From a virus (taxonomy: Duplodnaviria; Heunggongvirae; Uroviricota; Caudoviricetes), in the IMG/VR virus record IMGVR_UViG_3300028888_001839, positions 185,001 through 249,000 of that record: a stretch of DNA of 64,000 bases; one strand, written 5' to 3'. The first letter of the stretch is position 1, and every line of letters starts with the position of its first letter. The notes beneath the pieces are model-generated. The model saw nothing but the letters and a program-made list of their open reading frames with translations. It was not told the origin of the DNA and ran no database searches. Of the stretch, positions 9,775-45,654 are shown in pieces. The position numbers and the translations under genes are program-made.

Positions 9775-9850
9775 GGGGATGTAGCTCAGATGGCAGAGCG
9801 ATTCCTTTACACGGAATATGTCGGCGGTTCGATTCCGTCCGTCCCTACCA
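9775..9850 (+). tRNA. tRNA-Val (anticodon TAC)
   Basis: Cloverleaf: acceptor GGGGATG/CGTCCCT, D GCTC/GAGC, anticodon stem ATTCC/GGAAT with loop TTTACAC, T-loop TTCGATT, CCA encoded. Confidence 0.8.
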
Positions 9851-9853
9851 GAA

Positions 9854-9931
9854 GAGGCTATAGCTCAATGGACAGAGCGCTACCCTCCGAAGGTAGGTCT
9901 TGTGTGGGTTCGATTCTCACTAGCCTCACCA
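9854..9931 (+). tRNA. tRNA-Arg (anticodon CCG)
   Basis: Acceptor GAGGCTA/TAGCCTC, anticodon stem CTACC/GGTAG with loop CTCCGAA, T-loop TTCGATT, CCA encoded. Confidence 0.75.
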
Positions 9932-9933
9932 AT

Positions 9934-10010
9934 GCGGGTGTAGCTCAATCGGACAGAGCGGCAGTTTCCTAAACTGTAGGTTGCTGGTTCGATCCCAGTC
10001 TCCCGCACCA
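9934..10010 (+). tRNA. tRNA-Arg (anticodon CCT)
   Basis: Acceptor GCGGGTG/CTCCCGC (one mismatch), anticodon stem GCAGT/ACTGT with loop TTCCTAA, T-loop TTCGATC, CCA encoded. Confidence 0.7.
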
Positions 10011-10019
10011 TTTCCAAGA

Positions 10020-10094
10020 GGGGCTATAGCTCAACGGATAGAGCAGTTGCCTTCTAAGCTACTGATGTGGTTTCGATTACCGCTAGCCCCACCA
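10020..10094 (+). tRNA. tRNA-Arg (anticodon TCT)
   Basis: Acceptor GGGGCTA/TAGCCCC, loop CTTCTAA, T-loop TTCGATT, CCA encoded. Confidence 0.7.
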
Positions 10095-10099
10095 ATTTT

Positions 10100-10187
10100 G
10101 CCAAGGTCGCATAGTCTGGCTGATTGCACGGGTTTTGTAAACCCGCTCCGAAAGGACACAGCGGTTCAAATCCGCTCCTTGGCTCCA
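10100..10187 (+). tRNA. type II (long variable arm) tRNA; anticodon ambiguous: TGT in a 7-nt loop, or GTA (Tyr) if the loop is 9 nt
   Basis: Acceptor GCCAAGG/CCTTGGC, 3-bp D stem with long D loop, variable hairpin TCC-GAAA-GGA, T-arm AGCGG/CCGCT, discriminator T, CCA encoded; anticodon arm CGGGT-TTTGTAA-ACCCG. Confidence 0.6.
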
Positions 10188-10195
10188 TGAGACTT

Positions 10196-10270
10196 GCCTC
10201 CGTAGGTGTAATGGCAAACCGCCACTTTCGTAAAGTGGATTTCCTAGTTCGAGTCTAGGCGGGGGCTCCA
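10196..10270 (+). tRNA. tRNA-Thr (anticodon CGT)
   Basis: Acceptor GCCTCCG/CGGGGGC, anticodon stem CCACT/AGTGG with loop TTCGTAA, CCA encoded. Confidence 0.75.
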
Positions 10271-10273
10271 GAT

Positions 10274-10346
10274 GCCCCCTTAGTTCAGTGGTAGAACGCC
10301 ATCTTGGTAAGATGGAGGTCGTCGGTTCGTTTCCGACAGGGGGCTT
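10274..10346 (+). tRNA. tRNA-Thr (anticodon GGT)
   Basis: Acceptor GCCCCCT/AGGGGGC, anticodon stem CCATC/GATGG with loop TTGGTAA, T-loop TTCGTTT; CCA not encoded. Confidence 0.75.
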
Positions 10347-10349
10347 TAA

Positions 10350-10436
10350 GCGGAGTGTAGACCGTAGCCTGGTACCGGGTCTGCTTTGGGAGCAGATGAG
10401 AAATCCTCGGGGGTTCGAATCCCTCCACTCCGACCA
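10350..10436 (+). tRNA. tRNA-like, type-II-like with variable hairpin; anticodon loop TTTGGGA (TGG?) and irregular D-arm
   Basis: Acceptor CGGAGTG/CACTCCG, T-arm GGGGG-TTCGAAT-CCCTC, CCA encoded, variable hairpin GAG-AAATC-CTC; D region does not fold canonically. Confidence 0.45.
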
Positions 10437-10441
10437 TTTTC

Positions 10442-10518
10442 GGACCCTTAGCTCAATTGGTTAGAGCATCTGGCCCATACCCAGACGGTTGTAGGATCGT
10501 TCCCTACAGGGTCCACCA
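10442..10518 (+). tRNA. tRNA with CAT anticodon (Met/fMet/Ile2), unusual C33
   Basis: Perfect acceptor GGACCCT/AGGGTCC, D GCTC/GAGC, anticodon stem TCTGG/CCAGA with loop CCCATAC (C at position 33), CCA encoded. Confidence 0.7.
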
Positions 10519-10531
10519 AAACGATTTCAAT

Positions 10532-10605
10532 GGGCCGATAGTTCAACGGTAGAATGCTTCTCCGGCAGAGAAGAGATGCAGGTTCAATTTCTGCCGTGTC
10601 CACCA
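10532..10605 (+). tRNA. tRNA-like, possibly Ala (GGC); acceptor stem has 3 mismatches, possible pseudogene
   Basis: D and T arms fold (T-arm GCAGG-TTCAATT-TCTGC), anticodon arm CTTCT-CCGGCAG-AGAAG, but acceptor GGGCCGA versus CGTGTCC pairs at only 4 of 7 positions. Confidence 0.4.
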
Positions 10606-10748
10606 TTTCCAGGGCGGTTGTGACAAAATCAGTGTTTATCATTTCCCAATTCCAATGATTTCGTTGGGGTGAATAATTGGGGAAAGAAAGCGTGATGGGC
10701 ATTAATGGAAATACGATGTCCTTCTTGACAATCGTCCTTTATTTTCAT

Positions 10749-10823
10749 GGGCCGGTAGCACAACAGTAGTGCAACTCCTTTGCAAGGAGTAGGTTGTCCG
10801 TGCGAATCGGATTCGGTCCACCA
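10749..10823 (+). tRNA. tRNA-Ala (anticodon TGC)
   Basis: Acceptor GGGCCGG/TCGGTCC (two G-U pairs), anticodon stem ACTCC/GGAGT with loop TTTGCAA, T-loop TGCGAAT, CCA encoded. Confidence 0.7.
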
Positions 10824-10831
10824 ATTTTAAT

Positions 10832-10910
10832 GAGGCATGTAGCTTAAGATTAATGAGCGGGCGGTGATGAGCCGCCTATGTGTCGGTGCGAATCCGTCCA
10901 TGCTTCACCA
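10832..10910 (+). tRNA. tRNA with non-canonical anticodon loop TGATGAG (no U33; GAT/Ile-like or ATG) and a 3-nt acceptor-D connector
   Basis: Acceptor GAGGCAT/ATGCTTC, anticodon stem GGCGG/CCGCC, T-loop TGCGAAT, CCA encoded. Confidence 0.5.
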
Positions 10911-10918
10911 ATTTTATC

Positions 10919-10992
10919 GCACTGATGATGTAGCGGTAACATAAGGGCTTCCCAAGCCTTTCTCACGGGTTCGAGTCCCGTTCAGTGCTCCA
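10919..10992 (+). tRNA. tRNA-Gly (anticodon CCC)
   Basis: Acceptor GCACTGA/TCAGTGC, D ATGT/ACAT, anticodon loop TTCCCAA, T-arm ACGGG-TTCGAGT-CCCGT, CCA encoded. Confidence 0.75.
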
Positions 10993-11083
10993 TTTAGAAG
11001 CCTCTCCGCCAGAGTCCCGATCTGTCGGTCTGTATAAGGGAACGAGGTAGCCCCCGCTGAAAGCAGTAGGATAAGGGGCAAAT

Positions 11084-11159
11084 GCGGACTTAGTACAGTT
11101 GGTAGTACGTATCCTTGCCAAGGATGAGGTCACGGGTTCGAGTCCCGTAGTTCGCTCCA
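11084..11159 (+). tRNA. tRNA-Gly (anticodon GCC)
   Basis: Acceptor GCGGACT/AGTTCGC, D GTAC/GTAC, anticodon stem TATCC/GGATG with loop TTGCCAA, T-arm ACGGG-TTCGAGT-CCCGT, CCA encoded. Confidence 0.8.
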
Positions 11160-11163
11160 TTTT

Positions 11164-11238
11164 GCAAGATTGGCAGAGAAGTTATGCGCCACCCTTCCAA
11201 GGTGGTTTACGCCGATGCGAGTTCGGCATCTTGCTCCA
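11164..11238 (+). tRNA. tRNA-Gly (anticodon TCC)
   Basis: Acceptor GCAAGAT/ATCTTGC, anticodon stem CCACC/GGTGG with loop CTTCCAA, T-arm GCCGA-TGCGAGT-TCGGC, CCA encoded. Confidence 0.7.
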
Positions 11239-11495
11239 TCTTGAAAAGCGTCCCGAATGCGTCGGCCCAGAAGTACAATGGGTGCAAGGGCTCGCAAGCA
11301 ACGGCAGAAGATTCGGGTGCTCGTTCCGCATAGGACGTGAAGGTCCACCCAAGAAGGGGCGAACTCGGTTGCAAGTGTTATCAAGTTCTGCAACAACGGA
11401 TAGGCGAGAATCTGACTTGCAGGCGCAAGTGCAACCCAAAGGTTCGGTGAGGCGCAACACGGGAAAGGGCGCATGTGATTTTTTAGTGGCATACG
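11239..11495 (+). ncRNA. GC-rich ~250-nt structured element after the tRNA array, ending in a U-tract; candidate small RNA
   Basis: Roughly 55% GC versus ~45% for the window; no credible ORF; ends ...GGGCGCATGTGATTTTTTAG. Confidence 0.3.
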
Positions 11496-11599
11496 AGGTT
11501 CCTATTCAATAACTTGTTTGGGTATAAGTCAAATACCTCCCGCCACTTCTCCATTTGTGAGACATAGAGAGTTCCTATTCAATCGATCATACGACGAAG

Positions 11600-11619
11600 C
11601 ACGGGGCAACAACCCTGTG
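11600..11619 (+). other. acceptor-like hairpin CACGGGG-CAACAA-CCCTGTG inside a repeat unit
   Basis: 7-bp stem with one G-U pair, 6-nt loop; same architecture as the junctions of the permuted tRNA-like elements. Confidence 0.3.
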
Positions 11620-11677
11620 TAGTTTCTACTCTCCGTCTCATTTCCCTTTCAGGGGCAGAGGAAGTTCCTATTGATTT

Positions 11678-11753
11678 GAGAAGCTAGCTCAATGGAAGAG
11701 CGCCTTGGAGGAATCCAAGGAGATTACGGGTTCGAGTCCCGTGCCTTTCACCA
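11678..11753 (+). tRNA. tRNA-like gene with full cloverleaf but non-canonical 6/8-nt anticodon loop (CCTTGG-AGGAAT-CCAAGG)
   Basis: Acceptor GAGAAGC/GCCTTTC (one mismatch), D GCTC-AATGGAA-GAGC, T-arm ACGGG-TTCGAGT-CCCGT, CCA encoded; no U33. Confidence 0.45.
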
Positions 11754-11802
11754 ATACTTTCCGCCCCGCTTTTTTGCGGCACAGAATGTTCCTATAAAAA
11801 TG

Positions 11803-11880
11803 CTTGGTAAGCAGGAGGTCGTGGGTTCAAATCCCACTGCGGAGGGCTTGCACCTCCGTATAGCTCAGTCTGGTAGAGCG
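11803..11880 (+). ncRNA. Permuted/split tRNA-like element: 3' half (anticodon loop 3' side TTGGTAA, T-arm GTGGG-TTCAAAT-CCCAC, acceptor 3' strand) then linker then 5' half (acceptor 5' strand + D-arm TAGCTCAGTCTGGTAGAGC)
   Basis: 3' strand TGCGGAGG is complementary to the downstream CCTCCGTA with one G-U pair, forming an acceptor hairpin closed by a GCTTGCA loop. Confidence 0.45.
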
Positions 11881-12057
11881 CCTAAATAATACATTCCGCC
11901 GCTTTTCCAATTTCAATGTGGCAAAAGACGTTCCTATTACTTTGGTTGGTCTTCTATCCTCCAAAGGGATGGAAGATGGGGTTCAAATCCCCGTTAATAC
12001 GTCTCGCCACTGATTCTTCAGAGGCATATTGAGTTCCTATAAAAAGACACGCAGAGT

Positions 12058-12120
12058 GATTGGGTTCGACTCCCAACGACGGGGCAAAACCCGTTGTAGC
12101 TCAACGGTAGAGCATTTGCC
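12058..12120 (+). ncRNA. Second permuted/split tRNA-like element: T-arm TTGGG-TTCGACT-CCCAA + acceptor 3' CGACGGG, linker GCAAAA, acceptor 5' CCCGTTG + D-arm TAGCTCAACGGTAGAGC
   Basis: 7/7 complementarity (one G-U) between the 3' acceptor strand and the downstream 5' acceptor strand; canonical D-arm follows. Confidence 0.45.
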
Positions 12121-12549
12121 TTACAATACTCATCGCCTCACATTTTTCTGGAGCATTGGAAGTTCCTATTAGCATCTGCGGATGCAATTGACTGTAAATC
12201 AATCCAAATACTTCCCGCTCCTTTCCCTTTTCAGGTTGCATAATGGAGTTCCTATCAAACCCTTGGACCTGGGGACAATCAGGTCCACCATGAAAAATCG
12301 TACTCCCCGCAACCATAACAAAACAAAGTCGCATAGGCGGTTCCTATAATGGCGAAAGCCAACTTGCTGATAACGAGAAAATACTGCCCGCGACAAACTC
12401 TTGACCGCATATGGGGTTCCTATTACGCTTTCTCCACATTTCGGAGGATTCTCCACCTTTCGGGGAATCTAGCAATACCCTTCGCGGAACTTTTCCGTCC
12501 GTGTGGACGGTCTAAACGACAACAAAAACCAACCAAAGGGAAAACGACA

Positions 12550-17034: not shown

Positions 17035-17064
17035 TTTACAGCCATGCCAATTCTGTGGTATAAT
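17035..17064 (+). promoter_or_regulatory. sigma70-type promoter TTTACA-18-TGgTATAAT
   Basis: TTTACA 17035-17040, TATAAT 17059-17064 with upstream TG. Confidence 0.5.
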
Positions 17065-27900: not shown

Positions 27901-27930
27901 TTGAAACCCGGAACGAGGGTGTGGTATAAT
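27901..27930 (+). promoter_or_regulatory. sigma70-type promoter TTGAAA-18-TGgTATAAT (conserved family copy 2)
   Basis: TTGAAA 27901-27906, TATAAT 27925-27930; shares CTATTGAAACCCG...GTGTGGTATAAT with the copies at 8674 and 35029. Confidence 0.55.
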
Positions 27931-27954: not shown

Positions 27955-28302
27955 ATGAGAAGAAAAAGCAGACACAAAAGGCATATTGAACTTCTAAACA
28001 AGTTAGTTAAGAAGACTGACTACTATATTGCCCATGTTTGGAATGGGCAAGGGATATCGTTACATGGTAAGATTGACAATCTTGGCCGACAAAGGTTTGT
28101 TCGGTTTGGAGATTGCACACAAGAGTGGCATACCCCTTGGCTTAGACATTATTCTGTTGCTGGAAAGGTTTATTTTGCTTTAATGCCTAGAACAAAGGTT
28201 CGTTTTGGGATTGTCCTCACAGGGTGGAACGAACTGAAATGGTTTGTTCAAGAAGAGATTGCAAAGAAGGAGCGCAATGAGACGGACAAAGGATCTTTGT
28301 GA
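27955..28302 (+). CDS. hypothetical protein
   Basis: 115 aa, first gene after the promoter. Confidence 0.4.
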   Translation: MRRKSRHKRHIELLNKLVKKTDYYIAHVWNGQGISLHGKIDNLGRQRFVRFGDCTQEWHTPWLRHYSVAGKVYFALMPRTKVRFGIVLTGWNELKWFVQEEIAKKERNETDKGSL

Positions 28303-28603
28303 CAACAACTGCAATGAATGCGAGGCAATCCAGAACAAGCAAGTTGCTTTGCTTCTTAATGTGTTGGCATTGCGGTTTGGTGGTGAGGTGTGGGGTATAA
28401 CAAACAGAATCTGCCCAAATCTGACTTGCTGCCCGATATGTCACATAGATGACTTCTGCCACGATAGCCCAGATGCTAAAAGCGGAATAATCTGCATAGA
28501 TGCATTGGGGCTGGAGAATGAGACTTGCGAAGTGGCGACAGAGGCTTTGAAGGTTTTTGAGGCTATCAAGAAGGAAAAAGCGGAATGCGAATCCAAGGGC
28601 TAA
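28277..28603 (+). CDS. hypothetical Cys-rich small protein
   Basis: Start chosen at the ATG after AAGGAG; multiple CxxC pairs. Confidence 0.35.
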   Translation: MRRTKDLCDNNCNECEAIQNKQVALLLNVLALRFGGEVWGITNRICPNLTCCPICHIDDFCHDSPDAKSGIICIDALGLENETCEVATEALKVFEAIKKEKAECESKG

Positions 28604-28770
28604 TCAGAAAGCTTCGGGAAATCAAGGAAAAGTATGGCAATGTTGAAGTAGTCACATTGCAGCAAGGTGAGTTTGCACCACCTAATCCCTCATGGCTAAT
28701 TGATGGGGGACGATGGAGCCTAGAAGGATTTTCAAACGATTTCGGGGAACAAAAGAGAATTGTACTATAA
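28585..28770 (+). CDS. hypothetical small protein
   Basis: 61 aa ORF. Confidence 0.25.
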   Translation: MRIQGLIRKLREIKEKYGNVEVVTLQQGEFAPPNPSWLIDGGRWSLEGFSNDFGEQKRIVL

Positions 28771-28782
28771 AGGAGAAGAAAA

Positions 28783-30039
28783 ATGGCTAGAAAACTAGCG
28801 AGCATAGTAGAGATTGAATCGTGCGACCCGATTCCAGACACGGAACGTCTTTCAGTCGCAACGATGAAGGGCAAGGGATGGAAGGTAGTCACTGGGCGTG
28901 ATGAGTTCCATCGCGGCGACTTAGCCGTGTACTTCGAGATTGACAGTTACCTCCCAAGTGAAGATGAGCGGTATGCTTTTCTCAAAGATCGTTGCTTGAA
29001 GCGGTTTGTTTCGAAGAGCGGAAATGTCCTCCGTGAGGGAATCCGCATCAAGACGATTAAACTCCGTGGAGTCATATCGCAGGGGCTTCTGATGCCGCTT
29101 TCCGCTTTCGTTGGCAAGGAAATCCTCGTCAAGAATCATCTTGCAAAACCAGAAGATGTTATTGCAGAGGATGGGAAGCCAGTATCGCAGGAAGAGTTGG
29201 CGGATGTATATATCAGCACTCTCTACTACCTCAAGGACATAACAGAAGAGGGTGGAGCCCCTACTATCAAGGAGGTAGAGGTCGGAGTTGACTCCGATTT
29301 GACTGAACTTCTTCATGTTGAGCACTATGATGAAGTGAAGGAGTCTTTGCAGCCGCAGATGGGGTGTGCAATCTCTGCGGATGCGCTGGGCAACTTCCCT
29401 TCCGCTTTCGTGCCGAAGACAGATGAGGAGCGTATCCAGAACCTTGGAGACTGGTTCGAGACCATGAAGGGGCGCAAGTGGCAGGTGACTGTCAAGGCAG
29501 ACGGAACGAGTTGCACAATTGCTTTCTCCCCGAAGATTGACTTTGATAATCCTCAAATCGTGTGCTCGAGGAATCTTCGCCTTAAGAGTGTAACTGCCGC
29601 AGGAGAGGTGCCTGTTTACTGGCAGGTTGCTGAAAAGTATAAAATTCTCGAAAAACTTTCAGAGGCTCTTGTTGGAGGCATGGAATATGCTCTACAGGGA
29701 GAGGTTGTCGGCCCCGGAATCCAGAAGGACAGGAACAAGGAAAGCGAGTACATGTTCAAGTGCTTCCGCATCTATGACATCGCAAACCAGAAGTTCCTCA
29801 ATCCGAATGAGACGGTTGCTTTCTGCAAGGAGTTCGATATTCCGCATGTAGAAGTCCTCAAGACGGATTTTCCGTTCTTCGATGAGATTACGACGATGGA
29901 GGATGCCTTGAAGTTTGCGGAGGGCAAGACAAAGGAAGGGAATGAGCGTAAGGGAGTAGTCTGCAAGACATGCGACGATGGCCTGTATGCGAGCTTCAAG
30001 ATTGTGAGCAACAAGTACCTGATGAAACAGGAAGACTAA
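28783..30039 (+). CDS. ATP-dependent RNA ligase (Rnl-like nucleotidyltransferase)
   Basis: AGGAGA RBS; motif I KADGTS (lysine nucleotidyltransferase), downstream EGVV and K-x-K motifs; typical phage tRNA-repair function. Confidence 0.55.
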   Translation: MARKLASIVEIESCDPIPDTERLSVATMKGKGWKVVTGRDEFHRGDLAVYFEIDSYLPSEDERYAFLKDRCLKRFVSKSGNVLREGIRIKTIKLRGVISQGLLMPLSAFVGKEILVKNHLAKPEDVIAEDGKPVSQEELADVYISTLYYLKDITEEGGAPTIKEVEVGVDSDLTELLHVEHYDEVKESLQPQMGCAISADALGNFPSAFVPKTDEERIQNLGDWFETMKGRKWQVTVKADGTSCTIAFSPKIDFDNPQIVCSRNLRLKSVTAAGEVPVYWQVAEKYKILEKLSEALVGGMEYALQGEVVGPGIQKDRNKESEYMFKCFRIYDIANQKFLNPNETVAFCKEFDIPHVEVLKTDFPFFDEITTMEDALKFAEGKTKEGNERKGVVCKTCDDGLYASFKIVSNKYLMKQED

Positions 30040-30056
30040 CCTATAGGAGACTACGG

Positions 30057-30839
30057 ATGAAGAAGAAGCAAAATAATTCTCCGCTGACGGAGCCCCAGAT
30101 AGCCAAACTTGGCGAGACTCTTGCGAAAGGAATTTTCAAAGGGATTTCGCAGGACACATTCAAGTCGTTTGAAGTGAAGGATGCTATAGATACCATCTCC
30201 ACTCTGATTTCAGAGAGGGAGAAGTATCACGGCTACCTTGACGAGTTGAGGGCGAAGCATAAGAAAGATTATGAGTACAGCAAGCGATACTTCAATGCGA
30301 AGACTAAGGCTAGCAACAAGTCAGTAAAGGGAATCGTGAAGATTCTCAATGCCTATGATTCGGATAGTCTGATTTCCCTATATCTGTTCTTGAAGGAACT
30401 TCCTACCCGAAGCAATTGCATTGCAATCTACAGGCGGATAATAGCGGAGGCGAACAAAGACTGGGGTTCTCCCTCTTACATCGTCAGGAATGTCCTTAAT
30501 GGAACTAAGCAGGAACTCGTTTCTAAGAGGTCCAAGGCTTACCAGAAGATTGCGGCTGCCGTAGAGAAGACAAAGGAGAAGTTCGGGAAGGGCAATAGGC
30601 ATCTGCATCTGTCTGGGGTTGTAAGCGTCCGTGACGGAGACCATTACATAGCATTCGTGAGCGGAGGGAACAACGGTCATAGCAACTGGCGAGCTTACTT
30701 CGAGAGCATGATGATGATACTTGAAGAGTGCAAGCATGCCTGGATCATTGACATAGACAATGACTGCTGCGATGATGTACATTATGCGCTCATAGGATTT
30801 CGCATTAGCAACAAAACAAAAACAAGAAAGGAAAACTAA
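30057..30839 (+). CDS. hypothetical protein
   Basis: 260 aa; ATG at 30057 in the 29970 ORF. Confidence 0.45.
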   Translation: MKKKQNNSPLTEPQIAKLGETLAKGIFKGISQDTFKSFEVKDAIDTISTLISEREKYHGYLDELRAKHKKDYEYSKRYFNAKTKASNKSVKGIVKILNAYDSDSLISLYLFLKELPTRSNCIAIYRRIIAEANKDWGSPSYIVRNVLNGTKQELVSKRSKAYQKIAAAVEKTKEKFGKGNRHLHLSGVVSVRDGDHYIAFVSGGNNGHSNWRAYFESMMMILEECKHAWIIDIDNDCCDDVHYALIGFRISNKTKTRKEN

Positions 30840-31147
30840 TGTTCGAGAAGACAATGGACTTTTCCGAAGCCTTGAAGAACCTCAAGGCGGGGAAGAAGCT
30901 AACAAGGAAGGGATGGAACGGAAACATCGTTTCTTTCGACCCTAACATGTACATCTGGCTTGAACCTTCATGCAAGATTCCGAGGATGGATGCGATGAGC
31001 GAAAACCTCAAGTCCGCATTCGGGCGCAATGCCTCTATGGAGAAGTTGGGGACATTCATCATGAAGACCCGCGACAACAAGTTGATGGTTGGATGGCTTG
31101 CCACGAACACGGACCTTTTGGCCGAAGACTGGGTTGTGGTAGAATAG
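30839..31147 (+). CDS. DUF2829 / Tad2-like (Thoeris anti-defence 2-like) small protein
   Basis: 102 aa with the characteristic EALKNLKAGKKLTRKGWNG N-terminal motif of DUF2829 proteins. Confidence 0.5.
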   Translation: MFEKTMDFSEALKNLKAGKKLTRKGWNGNIVSFDPNMYIWLEPSCKIPRMDAMSENLKSAFGRNASMEKLGTFIMKTRDNKLMVGWLATNTDLLAEDWVVVE

Positions 31148-31192
31148 CTATTTCTGGTTGAACAAATCAAACAAGAAAGGTAAAAAACAAAA

Positions 31193-32821
31193 ATGCACAC
31201 ACTAGTATTCGCTGCTGCAGATGCGGCATCGTCAACAGGCGGTTTCCCTTGGGGAATCGTTGGTATCGCTATTGGGGTTCTGTTCCTCATTGGCGTGTTC
31301 GCGCTCGGGTATTGCAAGGCACCGCCCGATAAAGCCTATATTATATCCGGTCTCCGAAAGCGGACTCTCATCGGGAGGGCTGGTTTTAGGATTCCGTTCT
31401 TCGAGCGCCTTGACGTGGTGACGCTCGAACTCATTCAGGTTGACGTGAAGACGAAGCAGAAGGTCCCCAACAAGGACTTCATCAACGTCAATGTGGATGC
31501 AGTCGTGAACATCAAGGTGAGCCGTGAAGAGCAGATGCTCGCACTTGCGGCGATGAACTTCCTCAATGCCTCACCAGAATACATTAGCGAAAATGCCAAA
31601 GAAGTTCTCGAAGGCAATATGCGTGAGATTGTTGGTGAAATGACAACCAAGGAGATGGTTCTCAATCGCCAGCAGTTTGCAGAGGCGGTAAAGAAGAATG
31701 CCGCACCCGACTTGGAGAGGATGGGTTTGGAAATCGTCTCGTTCAATGTCCAGAACTTCACGGACGATGACAAGGCGATCGAGAACCTTGGTATCGACAA
31801 CATTGCAACCATCTCCAAGGATGCGGCAATCGCTCGTGCGAATGCGGAGGCGCAGGTGGAGCAGGCCAAGGCAAAGGCTGCAAAGGAAGCCAATGATGCC
31901 CGCGTAGCGGCCGAGACGGAGATTGCGATTCGCAACAACGAACTCGAAATCAAGAAAGCCGACCTCAAGAAGCAGGCCGACATTCAGATTGCGATAGCAG
32001 AGGCCGCCAAGGGAATCCAGGCGGAAGAACAGCGTAAGATTCTCGAAGCAACGAAGGGTGATGCGAGCATCATAGAACTCGAGAAGAAGACCGAACTCTC
32101 GCAGAGGAAGGTGGCAATCACCGAAAAGGAACTCGATGCCGAAATCCGCAAGAAGGCGGAAGCGGAGAAGTTCGCCGCACAGCAGGAGGCCGATGCTCGT
32201 CTCTACACCACACAGAAGAATGCGGAGGCGGAACTTGCTGAGCGAACCCGCAAGGCTGAAGCCGTCCAGATAGAGGCGGAGCGCGAGGCTGATGCTACAA
32301 AGGCCGCTGCGGATGCCGCACTTTTCCAGCAGGCGAAGGAAGCAGAGGCGAAGCAGATTGCAGCAGAGCGCGAAGCCGCCGCAATCAAGGCAATCGCAGA
32401 CGCCAACAAGGTGCAGGGTGAGAATGAGGCTTATGTCATCAAGGCGAAGGGCGATGCGGAGGCAGAGGCTATCCGCGCCAAGGCAATCGCAGAGGCAGAG
32501 GGTCTGGAAAAGAAAGCCGATGCCATGGCGAAGTACGGAGAAGCGGCAAAGATGGACTTGCAGTTGCAGGTAGCAAAGGAGTTCGTCAAGGTTCTCCCCG
32601 CAATCGCAACTGGAGTGGCTTCCGCTTACACGAAGGTCGGAAACATCACGATGTATGGCGATCAGTCAGGGAAGATTGCCGCAGGGGTTATCGACCACAC
32701 CACGCAGTTGTTCGATGGACTTTCCAAGTCTCTTGGCTTTGATGTGAAATCCGCAATCGGAGGAGCACTCGCAACCAAGTTGCTTGGGAGCAACGGCGGC
32801 GATTCCAAGAAGAAGGCTTAA
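31193..32821 (+). CDS. SPFH/band-7 (flotillin-like) membrane protein with long Ala/Glu/Lys-rich coiled coil
   Basis: N-terminal TM helix, PHB-like domain, then about 250 aa of AEAEA/KAKA coiled coil. Confidence 0.65.
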   Translation: MHTLVFAAADAASSTGGFPWGIVGIAIGVLFLIGVFALGYCKAPPDKAYIISGLRKRTLIGRAGFRIPFFERLDVVTLELIQVDVKTKQKVPNKDFINVNVDAVVNIKVSREEQMLALAAMNFLNASPEYISENAKEVLEGNMREIVGEMTTKEMVLNRQQFAEAVKKNAAPDLERMGLEIVSFNVQNFTDDDKAIENLGIDNIATISKDAAIARANAEAQVEQAKAKAAKEANDARVAAETEIAIRNNELEIKKADLKKQADIQIAIAEAAKGIQAEEQRKILEATKGDASIIELEKKTELSQRKVAITEKELDAEIRKKAEAEKFAAQQEADARLYTTQKNAEAELAERTRKAEAVQIEAEREADATKAAADAALFQQAKEAEAKQIAAEREAAAIKAIADANKVQGENEAYVIKAKGDAEAEAIRAKAIAEAEGLEKKADAMAKYGEAAKMDLQLQVAKEFVKVLPAIATGVASAYTKVGNITMYGDQSGKIAAGVIDHTTQLFDGLSKSLGFDVKSAIGGALATKLLGSNGGDSKKKA

Positions 32822-32830
32822 CCGCCCCAG

Positions 32831-32869
32831 CCCCTATCGGTTGAGAATGAGGAGAGCGACCGATAGGGG
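32831..32869 (+). terminator. hairpin after the flotillin gene (terminator and/or IS left-end structure)
   Basis: CCCCTATCGG ... CCGATAGGGG perfect 10-bp stem followed by CTTTCTCTC. Confidence 0.4.
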
Positions 32870-32889
32870 CTTTCTCTCACAATAGAAAA

Positions 32890-34440
32890 CACGAGGAAGA
32901 TGCCGAATCTTCATTCGGCATAAGAATCGGGCAGTAGAAATAAAAAAATGAAGAAATTCTGTCATTCTTTTTATCCGCAGGCATATCATAGAGTGTTCGC
33001 TTAATAGTGAAGCGTTATCATGCTAACCTACAAGACAAAACTGATTTTCGAGTCTCAGAAGGTTAAAGACTTCTGGAAGGAGCAGATGTGTTTTGTTCGG
33101 GACTGCTACAACTTTGTATCAAAGATAGCCTTTGAAGAGAAAATCCCATTAAACATCAAACTCTATCATGCAAGGCTCTATAGGGCTGAAAGGGAAGCAT
33201 TTCCCGCTCTTCCGGCCCAGATGTGCATCAAGGTTTATAAGCAGGTGCTGGCGAACTATCGCACGGCAAGAGAGAACAATGTGGAACTAGTGAAGCCGTT
33301 GGAGATGAAGAGACCTTCAATCGGGCTTGACAAGCGACTTTATTCCAGAATGACAAGGGAATCGTTCTGCCTATCCAATGGGGACGGAAACAGAAGATCG
33401 GAAGTCAAGTTCGTTCTCTATCCAAAGTTCAACGAGATGGCGGCGAAATACAGAATGTGCGATCCTATTCTTCAATACGATGAGAGGACTGATACCTTCT
33501 ATGCCTGCATACCATTCTTGGCTATAGAAACCACTCCTTGCCCTGAAGAATACCTTGGAGTGGATTTGGGCATCAAGAGGATTGCGACACTTTCAGATGG
33601 AACGGCGATAACAGACAAAGCATATCTAGCAAGACGGCGCAGAATCCGCCACAACAAGCGGATATTCCAGAGGCACAAGTCCCATTCCCATTCCGCAAGG
33701 AGGAAACTGAAAAGACTTAGGCGGAAGGAGTTCAACTACTCAAAGGAGTTCTGCCACAAGGTAGCCAATGAGATTCTTTCCCACCACGGTTCTGTCATCG
33801 TGATGGAGGACTTGTCTAAAATCAAGCAGACGACATCGAAAACGAAGGAAGGGTTCAAAAAGAAGCGGCACAACAACATGATGTCGCAAGTTCCCTTCTC
33901 CCACTTGAAGCAAATTTTAACCTACAAGGCACCACTCCTGGGCAAGAGAGTGGAAACAGTTTCGCCCCAGTACACGAGCCAGATTGATTGCAGAACAAAA
34001 TCCAAGGAAGGGTGTATTAGAAAGGGGTGTAGGTTGTACACGGCGGACGGCAAGGTGTTTGATGCGGACTGGAATGCCGCAATCAACATCGCCAACCGCA
34101 AACACCCGACTCCGTTCGGCTTGCCGCTAGACGGCACGCTGAACTTTGTCGGCAGGCATCGTCAACAGGTCGATAGTAGGAAGGGGCAACCCGACCTGCA
34201 AGCCGCCATGTCTTCAGCATGGAGGTAGTTGACAATGAACAACCCAAAGTACAAGAAGCTGGCGAAGTCAGAAACCGATGCGATGAATCGGTTTCGGAGA
34301 CTAAATCCTAACAAATACCATAATGCGCCCAATGTATATTGGTCGGTTATTTGGATATCCATTGGCATTATTTTCATCACAAAAGGGATTGTAAGAATCA
34401 TCTGGAGACTATTACATTGAACCTATTCGATTTAGCAAGA
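32890..34440 (+). mobile_element. IS605-family (IS1341-like) element carrying solo tnpB; approximate ends
   Basis: TnpB ORF with no adjacent tnpA; flanking noncoding segments of ~130 bp and ~210 bp between phage genes; ends not determined. Confidence 0.45.
33020..34228 (+). CDS. tnpB: TnpB (OrfB) RuvC-like RNA-guided nuclease of IS200/IS605 family
   Basis: 402 aa; RuvC motifs and C-terminal zinc finger CRTKSKEGCIRKGCRLYTADGKVFDADWNAAINIANR. Confidence 0.75.
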   Translation: MLTYKTKLIFESQKVKDFWKEQMCFVRDCYNFVSKIAFEEKIPLNIKLYHARLYRAEREAFPALPAQMCIKVYKQVLANYRTARENNVELVKPLEMKRPSIGLDKRLYSRMTRESFCLSNGDGNRRSEVKFVLYPKFNEMAAKYRMCDPILQYDERTDTFYACIPFLAIETTPCPEEYLGVDLGIKRIATLSDGTAITDKAYLARRRRIRHNKRIFQRHKSHSHSARRKLKRLRRKEFNYSKEFCHKVANEILSHHGSVIVMEDLSKIKQTTSKTKEGFKKKRHNNMMSQVPFSHLKQILTYKAPLLGKRVETVSPQYTSQIDCRTKSKEGCIRKGCRLYTADGKVFDADWNAAINIANRKHPTPFGLPLDGTLNFVGRHRQQVDSRKGQPDLQAAMSSAWR

Positions 34441-34458
34441 GTGCCGCTTTATTCGGTT

Positions 34459-35010
34459 ATGGCTGACAATGGCACTGTCATTGTGTTTGACACAGAGACT
34501 ACGGGATTAACCGACAACGACGACGTGGTGCAGTTGGCGGTTGTGGCAATGAGGAAGAGGAAAGAACTCTTTTCCAAGGCAGTTTACCTAAAAAATCAAG
34601 TGCCGATTGATGGGACTGAGGCGCAGAAGGTTAATGGTATAACTGATGAACTTTTACGGAAGTCTGGTCTTGATCCAGTAGATGTGCTTTCGGACTTCCT
34701 CGCACTCATAGAGAAGACAATATCCGAAGAGGGTATGGCATTGCTTGTTGCTCACAATATGTCTTTCGACTATCGGATGATTGTGAACATGATGAGGAAG
34801 TACGGCATTGCAGACGATTTGCCTGAAAGGGCGATGGGATGTTGCACAAAGGAATTCGTGAAATCTCTTCAATTGCCTAAGTCGATTCTCCCCGGCAATC
34901 ATCTTCGCAACTGCATTAGGGTGTTTCAGTTGGATGCGAAGAATTCACATGATGCCCTTGACGATGCAAAGGCCTGTTGGGAGCTTTTCAACTTCCTCAC
35001 CAAAGAGTGA
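34459..35010 (+). CDS. DnaQ-like 3'-5' exonuclease (DEDDh)
   Basis: Exo motifs VFDTETTGL, HNMSFD, HDALDDA. Confidence 0.7.
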   Translation: MADNGTVIVFDTETTGLTDNDDVVQLAVVAMRKRKELFSKAVYLKNQVPIDGTEAQKVNGITDELLRKSGLDPVDVLSDFLALIEKTISEEGMALLVAHNMSFDYRMIVNMMRKYGIADDLPERAMGCCTKEFVKSLQLPKSILPGNHLRNCIRVFQLDAKNSHDALDDAKACWELFNFLTKE

Positions 35011-35028: not shown

Positions 35029-35058
35029 TTGAAAGCCGAGTCAAGAGTGTGGTATAAT
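35029..35058 (+). promoter_or_regulatory. sigma70-type promoter TTGAAA-18-TGgTATAAT (conserved family copy 3)
   Basis: TTGAAA 35029-35034, TATAAT 35053-35058. Confidence 0.55.
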
Positions 35059-43654: not shown

Positions 43655-44440
43655 ATGAAGAAGCATGTAATGGCATTTCTAGTTGCGCTTGGAATGTGTC
43701 TAGGATTCGGCGGATGCAAGTCCGATGGAACTATACAGCCAGAAGCGAAATCAACCAACACCTATGTTGTTGTTGTTGGAATGGAGAACTCTAAGTTTGC
43801 AGGTGCTTGTCCTGGCGCAGGATACGATGCTGATAGGATGTATAAATTGCTTGCCGCATATACCCCTAACATTGTCCTGTATAAAGATGCTAATGCAACA
43901 AAAGCAAATGTGACGGCTGCATTGAACAAGGCCGTTGCAAGCACAACGGATGGGCTTGTGATATTCTGCTATTCCGGACACGGAGGAAGCGAGCCGTTCC
44001 CAAATACTGGCATTGAAGAAGTGGATGGGAAGGATGAGTTTCTATGTCTATGGGATACTTACTTGAAGGACAATGAAATATGGGACATCATAAGCAAGAG
44101 TAGTGGACGTATTATGTTTATAGTGGATGCATGTCATAGCCAAAGCATTATGAGAAATAGCGGATTCAGATTGAAAGTCCCTTTGTCGTGGGATCATGAA
44201 ATGTCAAGCGATTGTATGTTTTCGCTTCTCTGTTGGTCTGGGTGTCCTGATAATGCTTATTCGTATGGGTCAGTTTCAGGAGGTCAGTTGACTAATGCTT
44301 TGTTGCGTCATTATAATCATCAAGAGACATATCAAGACCTTTGGAATAAAATAAAGAATGACAAAACATTGAGAACTTATGAAAATCCACAAAGCACAAA
44401 CCTAGGCAAAGGTTTTATAAATAAATTGGTTTTTAAGTAA
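43655..44440 (+). CDS. secreted lipoprotein with caspase-like (peptidase C14) domain
   Basis: Lipobox LGFGGC; His/Cys dyad context YSGHGG ... VDACHSQS typical of caspase/HetF folds. Confidence 0.55.
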   Translation: MKKHVMAFLVALGMCLGFGGCKSDGTIQPEAKSTNTYVVVVGMENSKFAGACPGAGYDADRMYKLLAAYTPNIVLYKDANATKANVTAALNKAVASTTDGLVIFCYSGHGGSEPFPNTGIEEVDGKDEFLCLWDTYLKDNEIWDIISKSSGRIMFIVDACHSQSIMRNSGFRLKVPLSWDHEMSSDCMFSLLCWSGCPDNAYSYGSVSGGQLTNALLRHYNHQETYQDLWNKIKNDKTLRTYENPQSTNLGKGFINKLVFK

Positions 44441-45654
44441 TGAGTAAATGGCCAGAAACATACGAAGAGGTCAAAGCACTATTTCTTCGGAGGGGGTGTG
44501 TCCTTCTTTCAACTAATTACCAGGGATTGCACTCAAAGTTGGAGTATATAGCCTCTTGTGGTCATAAATGTACAGTAATAGCCTACAACTTTTTCAGGGG
44601 GGCTGGAACTTTATGTAGAAGATGTAACCCTAGTTGGAAAAGGAGACATAAATGTATTCCAATAGAGAAATTACAAGAAGAATATGAGTTGGCTGGGTGT
44701 AAATTATTATCAAGTTCATATTGCGGTAGTCTCGGATATCTAGTTTATATTGCACAATGTGGACACCAACACAAGATGCCGTATTATTGTTTCCATAGAG
44801 GTCAAGGGCGAAAATGTCCCAGATGTGCAGGTGGGGTGCGAAAAACTTTAGATGAAGTAAGGGAATTATTTCTGCGAGAAGGGTGTCAACTACTATCAAC
44901 AGAATACAAGTGGAATAGACAAAAGGTAGATTACATTGCTCAGTGTGGTCATCGTCATACTATCAAAGCCTTAGCTTTCTTTGAAGGAGAGGGGCGGTTA
45001 TGCCCAAAGTGCCAGAAAAAAGAAGATAGTGATAAGCGAATTAAATACACAGAAAAAGATCAGCAAGATTTATTGAATAGTTTTGGATGTAAGTTGATTC
45101 TTCCAGCGAGAACTACAAATGACAAAATGTTGTATGTGGCAAAATGTGGGCATCAAGTATCAATGCGTATTGAATTTTTCAAGCAGGGATATGGCCACGT
45201 ATGTAAAAAGTGTTACCAGAAATGCATATCTCTTGGTGAAAGAGCGGTTAAGATAGTATTGGACAAACTTAATATAGACTATGCACCTCAATATGTAATA
45301 CACACGGCACCAGGTAAAAGGCAACGCCTAGATTTCTATATCCCATCTGAAAGAATTGCAATAGAATTTAATGGACGGCAACACTATGAAGAAGTCCATT
45401 TCTTTCACAGACATAGAAACGGCAAGAATACATATGATTTTGAATATTCAAAGAAACAAGATGAGAGAAAAAGGGAATGGTGCATAAATAACGCCGTGCA
45501 TCTAATCGAAATAGACGGAAGAATATGGACTCACGATAAGACAAACAAAGACGAGTTTGAGAATTATCTGAAAAAGGAGATTTGCAATGGGAGATTCAAA
45601 AACCTACATTCCCTACGGTCATGTCCGCATTCAGTGCAAGGGATGCGGTGCTAA
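44440..45654 (+). CDS. protein with four tandem CGH-type zinc-ribbon repeats and a C-terminal DUF559 (Vsr/PD-(D/E)XK-like) endonuclease domain
   Basis: Repeats of about 60 aa each containing (A)xCGHxxxx...CxxC; C-terminal RLDFYIPSERIAIEFNGRQHYE matches DUF559. Confidence 0.5.
   Translation: MSKWPETYEEVKALFLRRGCVLLSTNYQGLHSKLEYIASCGHKCTVIAYNFFRGAGTLCRRCNPSWKRRHKCIPIEKLQEEYELAGCKLLSSSYCGSLGYLVYIAQCGHQHKMPYYCFHRGQGRKCPRCAGGVRKTLDEVRELFLREGCQLLSTEYKWNRQKVDYIAQCGHRHTIKALAFFEGEGRLCPKCQKKEDSDKRIKYTEKDQQDLLNSFGCKLILPARTTNDKMLYVAKCGHQVSMRIEFFKQGYGHVCKKCYQKCISLGERAVKIVLDKLNIDYAPQYVIHTAPGKRQRLDFYIPSERIAIEFNGRQHYEEVHFFHRHRNGKNTYDFEYSKKQDERKREWCINNAVHLIEIDGRIWTHDKTNKDEFENYLKKEICNGRFKNLHSLRSCPHSVQGMRC

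Follow-up and report, generated by a model that had tools for sequence, protein, structure and literature searches.

The 64,000-nucleotide stretch of viral DNA analysed here (the window in what follows; positions 185,001 to 249,000 of the IMG/VR record IMGVR_UViG_3300028888_001839) carries two neighbouring genes on its plus strand, one for a 102-amino acid (aa) protein of the Tad2 family (30839..31147) and one for a 542-aa FloT-type flotillin (31193..32821). A preliminary description of the sequence had placed both open reading frames (ORFs) at exactly these coordinates and had proposed that the pair might form an anti-defence/host-membrane module. Our analysis bears out both protein identities and indicates that the adjacency is probably lineage-specific synteny, in which a hypervariable accessory islet abuts a conserved gene of host origin. 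The window is phage DNA, with genes for a portal protein, RecE/RecT, a primase, NrdD and homing endonucleases and a 15-gene tRNA array, nearly all of its genes lying on the plus strand. Since an identical copy of the 102-aa protein occurs on 23 public contigs, the longest of 251,769 bp, and a 223-kb contig is the closest relative of the phage in IMG/VR, we assign it to the jumbo class. It is probably a phage of ~250 kb that infects anaerobic gut bacteria of the Planctomycetes-Verrucomicrobia-Chlamydiae (PVC) group. A megablast search with the 8-kb locus returned no DNA-level match among deposited phage genomes.

The 102-aa product contains EALKNLKAGKKLTRKGWNG and covers the entire PF11195 profile (Tad2-like, formerly DUF2829; positions 1-73 of 73) with 72.3 bits against a cut-off of 25. 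It likewise matches phrog_1048 and phrog_872 at E ~1e-20. In phmmer searches of the Protein Data Bank (PDB), seven distinct solved Tad2/AcrIIA7 proteins were recovered (E 1e-11 to 1e-8), with HgmTad2/AcrIIA7 (1.2e-11) and SPO1 Tad2 (1.3e-10) at the top and pdAcrIIA7, SptTad2 and ModTad2 (1e-8) also among them. An AlphaFold2 (AF2) model built from 23 homologues (pLDDT 88.4) has the N-terminal helix and the antiparallel beta-sheet with beta2-beta5 insertion of the Tad2 fold; in a Foldseek comparison with the PDB its top 24 matches were all Tad2 (E 7e-9 to 3e-5, TM score 0.60-0.78), the next one lying at E 0.45, and the long-insertion proteins HgmTad2 and SptTad2 ranked best. The hidden Markov model (HMM) search and the structural comparison were thus both clearly positive. 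Together with the sequence match to solved Tad2 proteins and the residues of the predicted ligand pocket, they mark the product as a genuine member of the Tad2 family, as had been suggested before from its DUF2829 hallmark.

The closest solved relatives, HgmTad2/AcrIIA7 (PDB 8kbi, 8kbj, 8kbk) and SptTad2 (8wjd), share with the window protein the long beta2-beta5 insertion (TM score 0.75-0.78) and the W-N-G and S/T-x-T-D residues of the pocket for glycocyclic ADP-ribose (gcADPR), yet identity is only ~33-40%. In HgmTad2, the substitutions W21A/N22A and S90A/T92A/D93A abolish gcADPR binding (PMC10680739). The equivalent positions are kept in the window protein (W21/N22 as W26/N27, G23 as G28, and S90/T92/D93 as T89/T91/D92, the exchange of serine for threonine being conservative). 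In contrast, the HgmTad2 residues that bind cyclic dinucleotides (cGG/cGAMP) are not conserved (R31 to N36, S47 to A52, F70 to G71/T72, N85 to V84, with the alignment less certain within the insertion). SPO1 Tad2 (8sme, 8smf, 8smg), the founding anti-Thoeris sponge, has the family, the core fold and the GWNG and TD..LAEDW motifs in common with the window protein, and both are short, single-domain phage proteins; it differs in a much shorter beta2-beta5 insertion (TM score only 0.60-0.66), in its isoelectric point (4.7 vs 8.8) and in coming from a Bacillus phage. ModTad2 (9eib, 8v3e), a sponge for His-ADPR and cUMP, is of the same family and fold (TM score 0.72-0.73), but shorter than the window protein.

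We refer to the window protein and its nearest relatives as type A; in a set of 5.8 billion proteins clustered at 90% identity, this group accounts for 29 clusters. Its members carry a conserved 6-residue insertion in the beta1-beta2 loop (GWNG-N-IVSFDP) that is absent from all aligned reference proteins, HgmTad2 and SptTad2 included. In solved structures this loop lines the gcADPR pocket (PMC10680739; 10.1101/2023.05.01.538930), and the placement of the insertion by the pocket is the main reason why canonical 3'cADPR should not be assumed to be the ligand. The gene is under purifying selection, with a ratio of non-synonymous to synonymous substitution rates (dN/dS) of 0.06-0.12 where synonymous sites are unsaturated; most other genome pairs are saturated at these sites.

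As for the 542-aa product, PF01145 (Band_7) scored 85.6 bits against a cut-off of 23.6, and PF15975 (Flot), with 26.4 bits, narrowly missed its cut-off of 27. Phmmer searches of the PDB matched it to flotillin-1 (E 6.6e-44, in two stretches, residues 44-349 and 407-516) and flotillin-2 (3.1e-37), with matches that extend from the SPFH domain through the coiled coil into the C-terminal region. The predicted layout comprises a hydrophobic anchor (aa 17-42; hydropathy peak 2.6) found in all phage and bacterial relatives, the SPFH domain (46-235), an Ala/Glu/Lys-rich coiled coil (236-470; 61% A/E/K/Q) and a conserved C-terminal region. By these sequence criteria the protein qualifies as a genuine and complete flotillin, and the SPFH/flotillin assignment made in the preliminary description stands. 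With B. subtilis FloT and the eukaryotic flotillin-1/2 (PDB 9l3g, 9bq2) it has the SPFH and flotillin coiled-coil architecture in common. FloT is also its best NCBIfam model (NF058507), but at 220.9 bits the score falls below the equivalog cut-off of 700, so the protein may be termed FloT-like and is not callable as an orthologue of B. subtilis FloT. Many bacterial SPFH operons contain an adjacent partner gene of the NfeD family. Here the phage locus differs from FloT as well, since Pfam searches revealed no NfeD domain among the window neighbours, nor was there one in the bacterial flotillin locus L037.

The flotillin has close cellular relatives. Its best matches in 185,579 species genomes were found in ruminant-gut metagenome-assembled genomes labelled Kiritimatiellae, Lentisphaerae or Verrucomicrobia, with 82-86% identity over the full length and 83-90% over the core; next came matches of 65-72% in those PVC groups, followed by ~50% in Lachnospiraceae and Treponema. 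The PVC chromosomal copies (L037, L040-L043) are fully collinear with those of the phages, from the anchor and the GYCKAPPDKA junction through SPFH domain and coiled coil to the C-terminus, yet differ from them in setting: they lie in housekeeping surroundings without Tad2 (MutS, KsgA, ThiD/E/M, a sialidase, MacB/FtsX, MgsA, HolA, ScpB, prephenate dehydrogenase), and no gene of the phage locus was present at them, whereas the phage copies sit in a phage operon. They also differ in base composition, with a GC content of 62-65% (87-93% at third codon positions, GC3) that matches their own genomes, compared with 49-58% (GC3 50-76%) in the phage flotillins, which in turn exceed their phage flanks (40-52%) by 5-9 points, or by 4 points in the related phage genome L121. 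We considered whether the 'bacterial' sequences of 82-86% identity might be mis-binned phage contigs and rejected this on account of their housekeeping neighbours and host-like GC content. In a neighbour-joining tree, five phage flotillins form one clade nested inside the PVC bacterial flotillins. The intermediate GC content is the signature of a partly ameliorated import from host to phage, and this composition and the nested position together show host-to-phage capture. The captured gene has since been kept under purifying selection: dN/dS is 0.03-0.09, and the protein is 85-98% identical among the phage relatives, whose flanking genes share 34-71% in L002, L003, L035, L120, L121 and L123.

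Flotillins had been described before as rare in phages. This is true of deposited genomes, for tblastn detected a relative in 9 of 50,697 phage records and PHROGs contains no flotillin family; among metagenomic phages of gut and rumen they are less rare. There, flotillins recur, apparently independently, in several large gut phages (L004-L011, L038, L039). In the clade formed by L006-L010 the gene is preceded by a dUTPase or a peptide deformylase and lies near NrdD, among host-like auxiliary genes.

Within the window, both genes appear to belong to one transcription unit. A sigma-70-type promoter-like site with an extended -10 element (27901..27930, plus strand; TTGAAA-N18-TGTGGTATAAT) matches the consensus at 11 of 12 positions and has the TG; TTGAAA-N18-TATAAT occurs twice in the window against 0.03 expected. 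The extended -10 12-mer of this site, GTGTGGTATAAT, has exact copies at 396, 27919 and 35047 and a one-mismatch copy at 17053, all upstream of genes, and the next identical promoter lies at 35029. We observed, besides, that the recurrent (G/C)TGTGGTATAAT motif (396-407, 17053-17064, 27919-27930, 35047-35058) stands ahead of gene blocks, and it likely identifies a class of phage units that the host polymerase transcribes. By consensus match, the site at 27901 is the probable start of a unit that ends in the flotillin gene. It is followed by three small plus-strand ORFs (27955-28302, 28244-28603 and 28585-28770), which are 91-93% conserved in L001 and had no match in Pfam, PHROG or PADLOC, by an RNA ligase gene (28783..30039), by a gene that we call orf289 and by the Tad2 and flotillin genes. 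The stop codon of orf289 overlaps the Tad2 start codon (TAATG), and 45 bp separate the Tad2 gene from the flotillin gene; orf289 is thus coupled to Tad2 more tightly than flotillin is. A Shine-Dalgarno-like motif, AAGAAAGG, precedes both the Tad2 and the flotillin gene. Between 27930 and the flotillin stop codon we found no convincing plus-strand terminator. Directly 3' of that stop codon there is a hairpin with a 15-bp stem followed by CUUUCUCUC (32829..32871, plus strand; dG -31.4 kcal/mol, z -4.33, with none of 200 shuffled sequences folding equally well). It is kept in L001 and is the probable terminator of the unit. A weaker promoter-like site in the 3' end of the Tad2 gene (31118..31145, plus strand; TTGGCC-N16-TAGAAT with TG, 9 of 12 matches, two mismatches to the recurrent extended -10) could possibly serve as a separate flotillin promoter, which we propose with low confidence. 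Hence, the promoter at 27901 named in the preliminary description is present and its motif recurrent, and the RNA ligase that it placed in the unit is confirmed (PF21189 and PF09414; TIGR02306 at 156.1 bits against a cut-off of 151.15). Its claim of co-transcription from this site is plausible for the seven genes ending in flotillin, in view of the recurrent promoter, the lack of a convincing internal terminator and the 3' hairpin, and we carry it forward as an inference from these features.

To what extent the two genes belong together can be judged from their distribution. Our clade sample comprised eight distinct genomes, namely the window, L001, L002, L003/L122, L035/L036, L120, L121 and L123, and in seven of them a Tad2-like gene lies immediately upstream of flotillin. 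In L121, flotillin, the downstream exonuclease and the backbone are kept, and a TnpB gene replaces the Tad2/RNA-ligase islet; this genome had neither an RNA ligase nor, in a profile search down to E = 1, any Tad2. Outside the clade the pairing was not encountered. Ten other phage flotillin loci (eight from IMG/VR, L004-L011, plus L038 and L039) contained no Tad2-like ORF within ~6 kb by profile search, none of 22 other Tad2 loci had a flotillin, and Tad2 was likewise absent from all 81 flotillin loci of bacteria (L037, L040-L119). As regards the co-occurrence in related phages, which the preliminary description had left to be checked, it therefore holds for seven of eight members of one jumbo-phage clade and for none of these loci beyond it.

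Moreover, the islet between ligase and flotillin differs in almost every genome of the clade; it contains a single Tad2 gene or a pair of them, drawn from three or more types. It holds orf289 and a type A gene in the window, types A and C in L001, type B, orf289 and type A in L002, orf289 and type B in L003, a long type B and type A in L035, an unclassified divergent Tad2 copy, the orf289 homologue orf258 and type A in L120, and two small ORFs (59 aa and 90 aa) with type A in L123. The Tad2 paralogue that touches flotillin is accordingly not the same orthologue in every genome. In type B (L002:1938-2222, L003:5646-5945, L035:5154-5618) the validated N22, S90 and T92 positions are replaced within GWHHG and WNPLPCD, type C (L001:5681-5956) is canonical, and the divergent copy (L120:3440-3841) fits none of the three types and is devoid of both pocket motifs. 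These differing repertoires suggest sponges of different specificity. A fixed position with a variable set of counter-defence genes is likewise typical of phage anti-defence loci, such as anti-CRISPR loci and the locus with which SPbeta-like phages counter Gabija; the concept of an anti-defence locus or island has been discussed before (10.1101/2023.05.01.538930). The islet of the window clade differs from those in that only a single sponge family is represented there, by one or two paralogues, alongside orf289.

The border between the two genes is mosaic. Compared with L001, nucleotide identity is 84% in the left backbone and 85% in Tad2, the 3' part of the ligase and orf289 being unalignable, and it reaches 96.5% in flotillin and its hairpin and 91% in the right backbone; L001 also has a whole extra Tad2 gene at the junction of Tad2 and flotillin. 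Taken together, the variable islet, the genome without Tad2 and the absence of pairing outside the clade do not amount to the pattern of a co-evolving pair, and we saw no evidence that the two genes act as a functional module. In a separate comparison we had considered a Tad2 arms race from the synonymous divergence between the window and L001 (dS 0.97 for Tad2 vs 0.11 for flotillin). This was rejected, since Tad2 matches the backbone (85%) and it is flotillin that is unusually conserved.

The explanation that we favour, and consider fairly likely overall, is that of a Tad2 sponge and a captured flotillin that are neighbours by virtue of islet position. By analogy with its solved relatives, the Tad2 protein would form a homotetramer with inter-dimer pockets for a signal derived from ADP-ribose (ADPR) and made by TIR proteins, the candidates being 3'cADPR/gcADPR or the related His-ADPR and N7-cADPR. 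Once this signal is sequestered, a Thoeris-type effector of the host would never be switched on, and such a block seems a reasonably probable function of the tetramer. The phage flotillin is most likely anchored in the inner membrane, where it would assemble into SPFH scaffolds as the cellular protein does, a role that we would assign to it with high confidence at the role level by reference to cellular flotillins; the scaffolds might organise or stabilise the membrane through the long infection of a jumbo phage. The adjacency itself would stem from Tad2 genes occupying a fast-turnover islet with the RNA ligase on one side and the conserved flotillin on the other, and not from a need of either protein for the other.

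Certain observations weigh against this explanation. The adjacency persists in seven of the eight genomes even though the Tad2 paralogue changes, so that a position next to flotillin may be favoured, and the two genes are apparently part of one transcription unit. As to the ligand, the conserved IVSFDP insertion lies in a pocket-lining loop, and within type A the residue equivalent to T92 can be T, S, Y or A, for which reason type A proteins may bind something other than gcADPR. Furthermore, 19 of 84 sponge homologues (Acb2, Tad1 and Tad2 combined) inhibited none of seven systems in a published survey (PMC12393519). Finally, no function of a phage flotillin came to light in our literature search, and the benefit of the protein to the phage is therefore conjecture.

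Alternative readings concern either the ligand or the role of flotillin, and as they overlap with each other and with the one favoured here, their probabilities need not add up to one. It is doubtful, yet worth considering, that the Tad2-like protein sponges another messenger (a CBASS cyclic dinucleotide, Pycsar cUMP/cCMP or a new signal) and no known Thoeris signal. Such a shift would be in keeping with the plasticity of the family, members of which inhibit type I, II and IV Thoeris, CBASS and Pycsar (18 Tad2 proteins were tested in PMC12393519), with the long (~40 aa) beta2-beta5 insertion that recalls its best structural matches, the cyclic-dinucleotide-binding HgmTad2 and SptTad2, with the unique conserved loop insertion by the pocket and with the altered pockets of the sister paralogues (GWHHG/NPLPCD), which imply divergent specificities. 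However, it is the validated gcADPR-site residues that the window protein has kept, and not those with which HgmTad2 binds cyclic dinucleotides. We regard it as very improbable that the protein is an anti-CRISPR of the AcrIIA7 type, which would sequester type II-A tracrRNA. The best PDB sequence matches are indeed AcrIIA7/HgmTad2 entries (8kbi, 9kzr), and AcrIIA7 holds tracrRNA in a basic groove (PMC13133391), for which the basic character of the window protein (in contrast to SPO1 Tad2) would be suited; but only two of the five groove residues of pdAcrIIA7 are kept (K58 and K66, as K16 and K24), both within the family-wide core motif, the others being replaced (K71 by N29, K93 by D51, R101 by S59), and HgmTad2 showed no Acr activity in the hands of another group (PMC10680739).

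With respect to flotillin, a two-layer counter-defence module would render leakage past the sponge survivable: Tad2 would soak up the TIR signal, and flotillin would strengthen or mend the membrane when pore-forming or transmembrane (TM) effectors of abortive infection (type II Thoeris ThsA or the TM effectors of CBASS or Pycsar) attack it. This extends the module claim of the preliminary description, and we consider it improbable. The genes are adjacent and apparently co-transcribed in seven of eight genomes, type II Thoeris effectors have TM helices believed to damage the membrane (10.1101/2024.01.03.573942), type II Thoeris is open to inhibition by Tad2 homologues (PMC12393519), membrane-remodelling proteins with a genetic link to flotillin influence the outcome of phage infection (PMC8844932), and in independent lineages RNA-repair genes, themselves plausible as counter-defence genes, again adjoin a flotillin. 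Yet the adjacency is confined to one clade, within which the paralogue changes and L121 keeps flotillin on its own, independent loci are unpaired, and the second phage clade (L006-L010) has its flotillin amid dUTPase, peptide deformylase and NrdD genes. Besides, the protein is host-derived and essentially unchanged from the cellular form, having no phage-specific domain and no match in PADLOC. A further version, distinctly improbable in our view, would make the phage flotillin a membrane-protecting counter-defence protein that blunts TM abortive-infection effectors and is co-expressed with a diversified Tad2 set, whose type A and B paralogues would recognise undescribed immune signals of PVC bacteria. 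It is possible, if tentative, that flotillin benefits the phage in a way unrelated to defence, e.g. by controlling the time of lysis, by excluding superinfecting phages, by modulating an FtsH-type protease or by providing a platform for membrane-associated assembly. Its recurrence in large gut phages amid host-like auxiliary genes and the strong purifying selection would fit such a role, but this proposal overlaps with the favoured explanation, differing only in the benefit proposed.

What follows from the favoured explanation is in part sobering. The Tad2 protein is a further member of a very large known family, with homologues known in the thousands, the flotillin is a rare but conceptually ordinary case of host-gene capture, and their pairing is not a new system; that two genes are adjacent in one clade is not enough to make them a functional module. 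On the other hand, one locus of a jumbo-phage clade brings together, in varying combinations, Tad2 genes of three or more types that differ in their pocket residues. Tad2-like sponges are useful baits for finding new bacterial immune signals, and to our knowledge nothing has been reported on signalling immunity in Kiritimatiellae or Lentisphaerae. The locus also represents a clean, datable example of a complete host flotillin that was captured and held under strong constraint, in line with large gut phages seeming to carry flotillins recurrently. A survey of jumbo phages (PMC13037316) makes no mention of flotillin, Tad2 or PVC hosts.

Two further genes of the unit deserve a description. The ligase at 28783..30039 (plus strand) is an ATP-dependent RNA ligase of the Rnl5/DraRnl type with an N-terminal OB-fold (PF21189 100 bits, PF09414 87 bits, phrog_968 4.7e-77). 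It delimits the variable islet on the left and is only 51-68% identical among clade members. Against L001, its nucleotide similarity of 84% ends at ~29109, the end of the N-terminal OB-fold (PHA02142) domain, beyond which the catalytic domain is unalignable at the nucleotide level, the whole protein being only 51% identical; this suggests a recombination breakpoint at the domain boundary. The listed ORF of orf289 spans 29970-30839 (plus strand), and its probable true start is at 30057 (30057..30839, 260 aa), homologues aligning only from residue ~30. Its conserved C-terminal alpha/beta domain, with the motif GG.NG..W..Y ... W.I...NDC.DDV.Y..IGFR, is common to about 138 representative clusters, mostly proteins of 80-140 aa. 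Neither Pfam (searched with 34 homologues) nor a PDB profile search nor an AF2 model (pLDDT 72.6) with Foldseek yielded a family or fold. In four genomes of the clade orf289 immediately precedes a Tad2 gene, and it is a candidate accessory or counter-defence gene. PADLOC returned nothing relevant for eight proteins of the unit, with only a marginal homing-endonuclease match for orf289.

Beyond the flotillin terminator hairpin there is a TnpB-only element of the IS200/IS605 type (32884..34231, plus strand; TnpB ORF 33020-34228; NF040570 at 141 bits, cut-off 100), which lies before a small ORF starting at 34235 and does not belong to the Tad2/flotillin unit. It is a clean insertion relative to the empty site of L001 and is absent from L001-L003, its ends being ambiguous by 5 bp (ACAAT). 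Unrelated TnpB genes occur in relatives and other flotillin-bearing contigs (L035 from 12509 on the plus strand; L121 3633-4910, directly upstream of flotillin; L039 1-1210). An Rfam search of the whole window and a permissive scan of 30500-34600 identified tRNAs only, with no omega-RNA or riboswitch family.

Among the flotillin-bearing contigs outside the clade, RNA-repair genes flank the gene in individual loci, namely a kinase-phosphatase-T4 Rnl1 fusion in L008 (7533-9743) and a Thg1-like enzyme in L004, echoing the RNA ligase near the window flotillin. L004 and L005 encode ~820-aa proteins resembling the major vault protein (MVP), with an MVP shoulder (an SPFH-like domain) and, in L005, Vault repeats; the RNA-repair or vault-like genes of these two contigs are found at L004:7887-8759 and 10030-12486 and at L005:9836-12325.

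Elsewhere in the window, ARAGORN assigned 15 genes to the tRNA array (9775-11753), one of which (11678-11753) has a 4-base anticodon, ggaa, and was designated 'tRNA-???'. The array includes a tRNA-His with anticodon ATG, and Rfam added a tRNA at 10532-10602 that is not in the ARAGORN list. In relatives, NrdD is interrupted by GIY-YIG or Hom_end_hint (intein/homing-endonuclease) modules (L035:718-2904; L121:1-1155), and the window itself has an HNH/homing-endonuclease ORF at 44440-45654.

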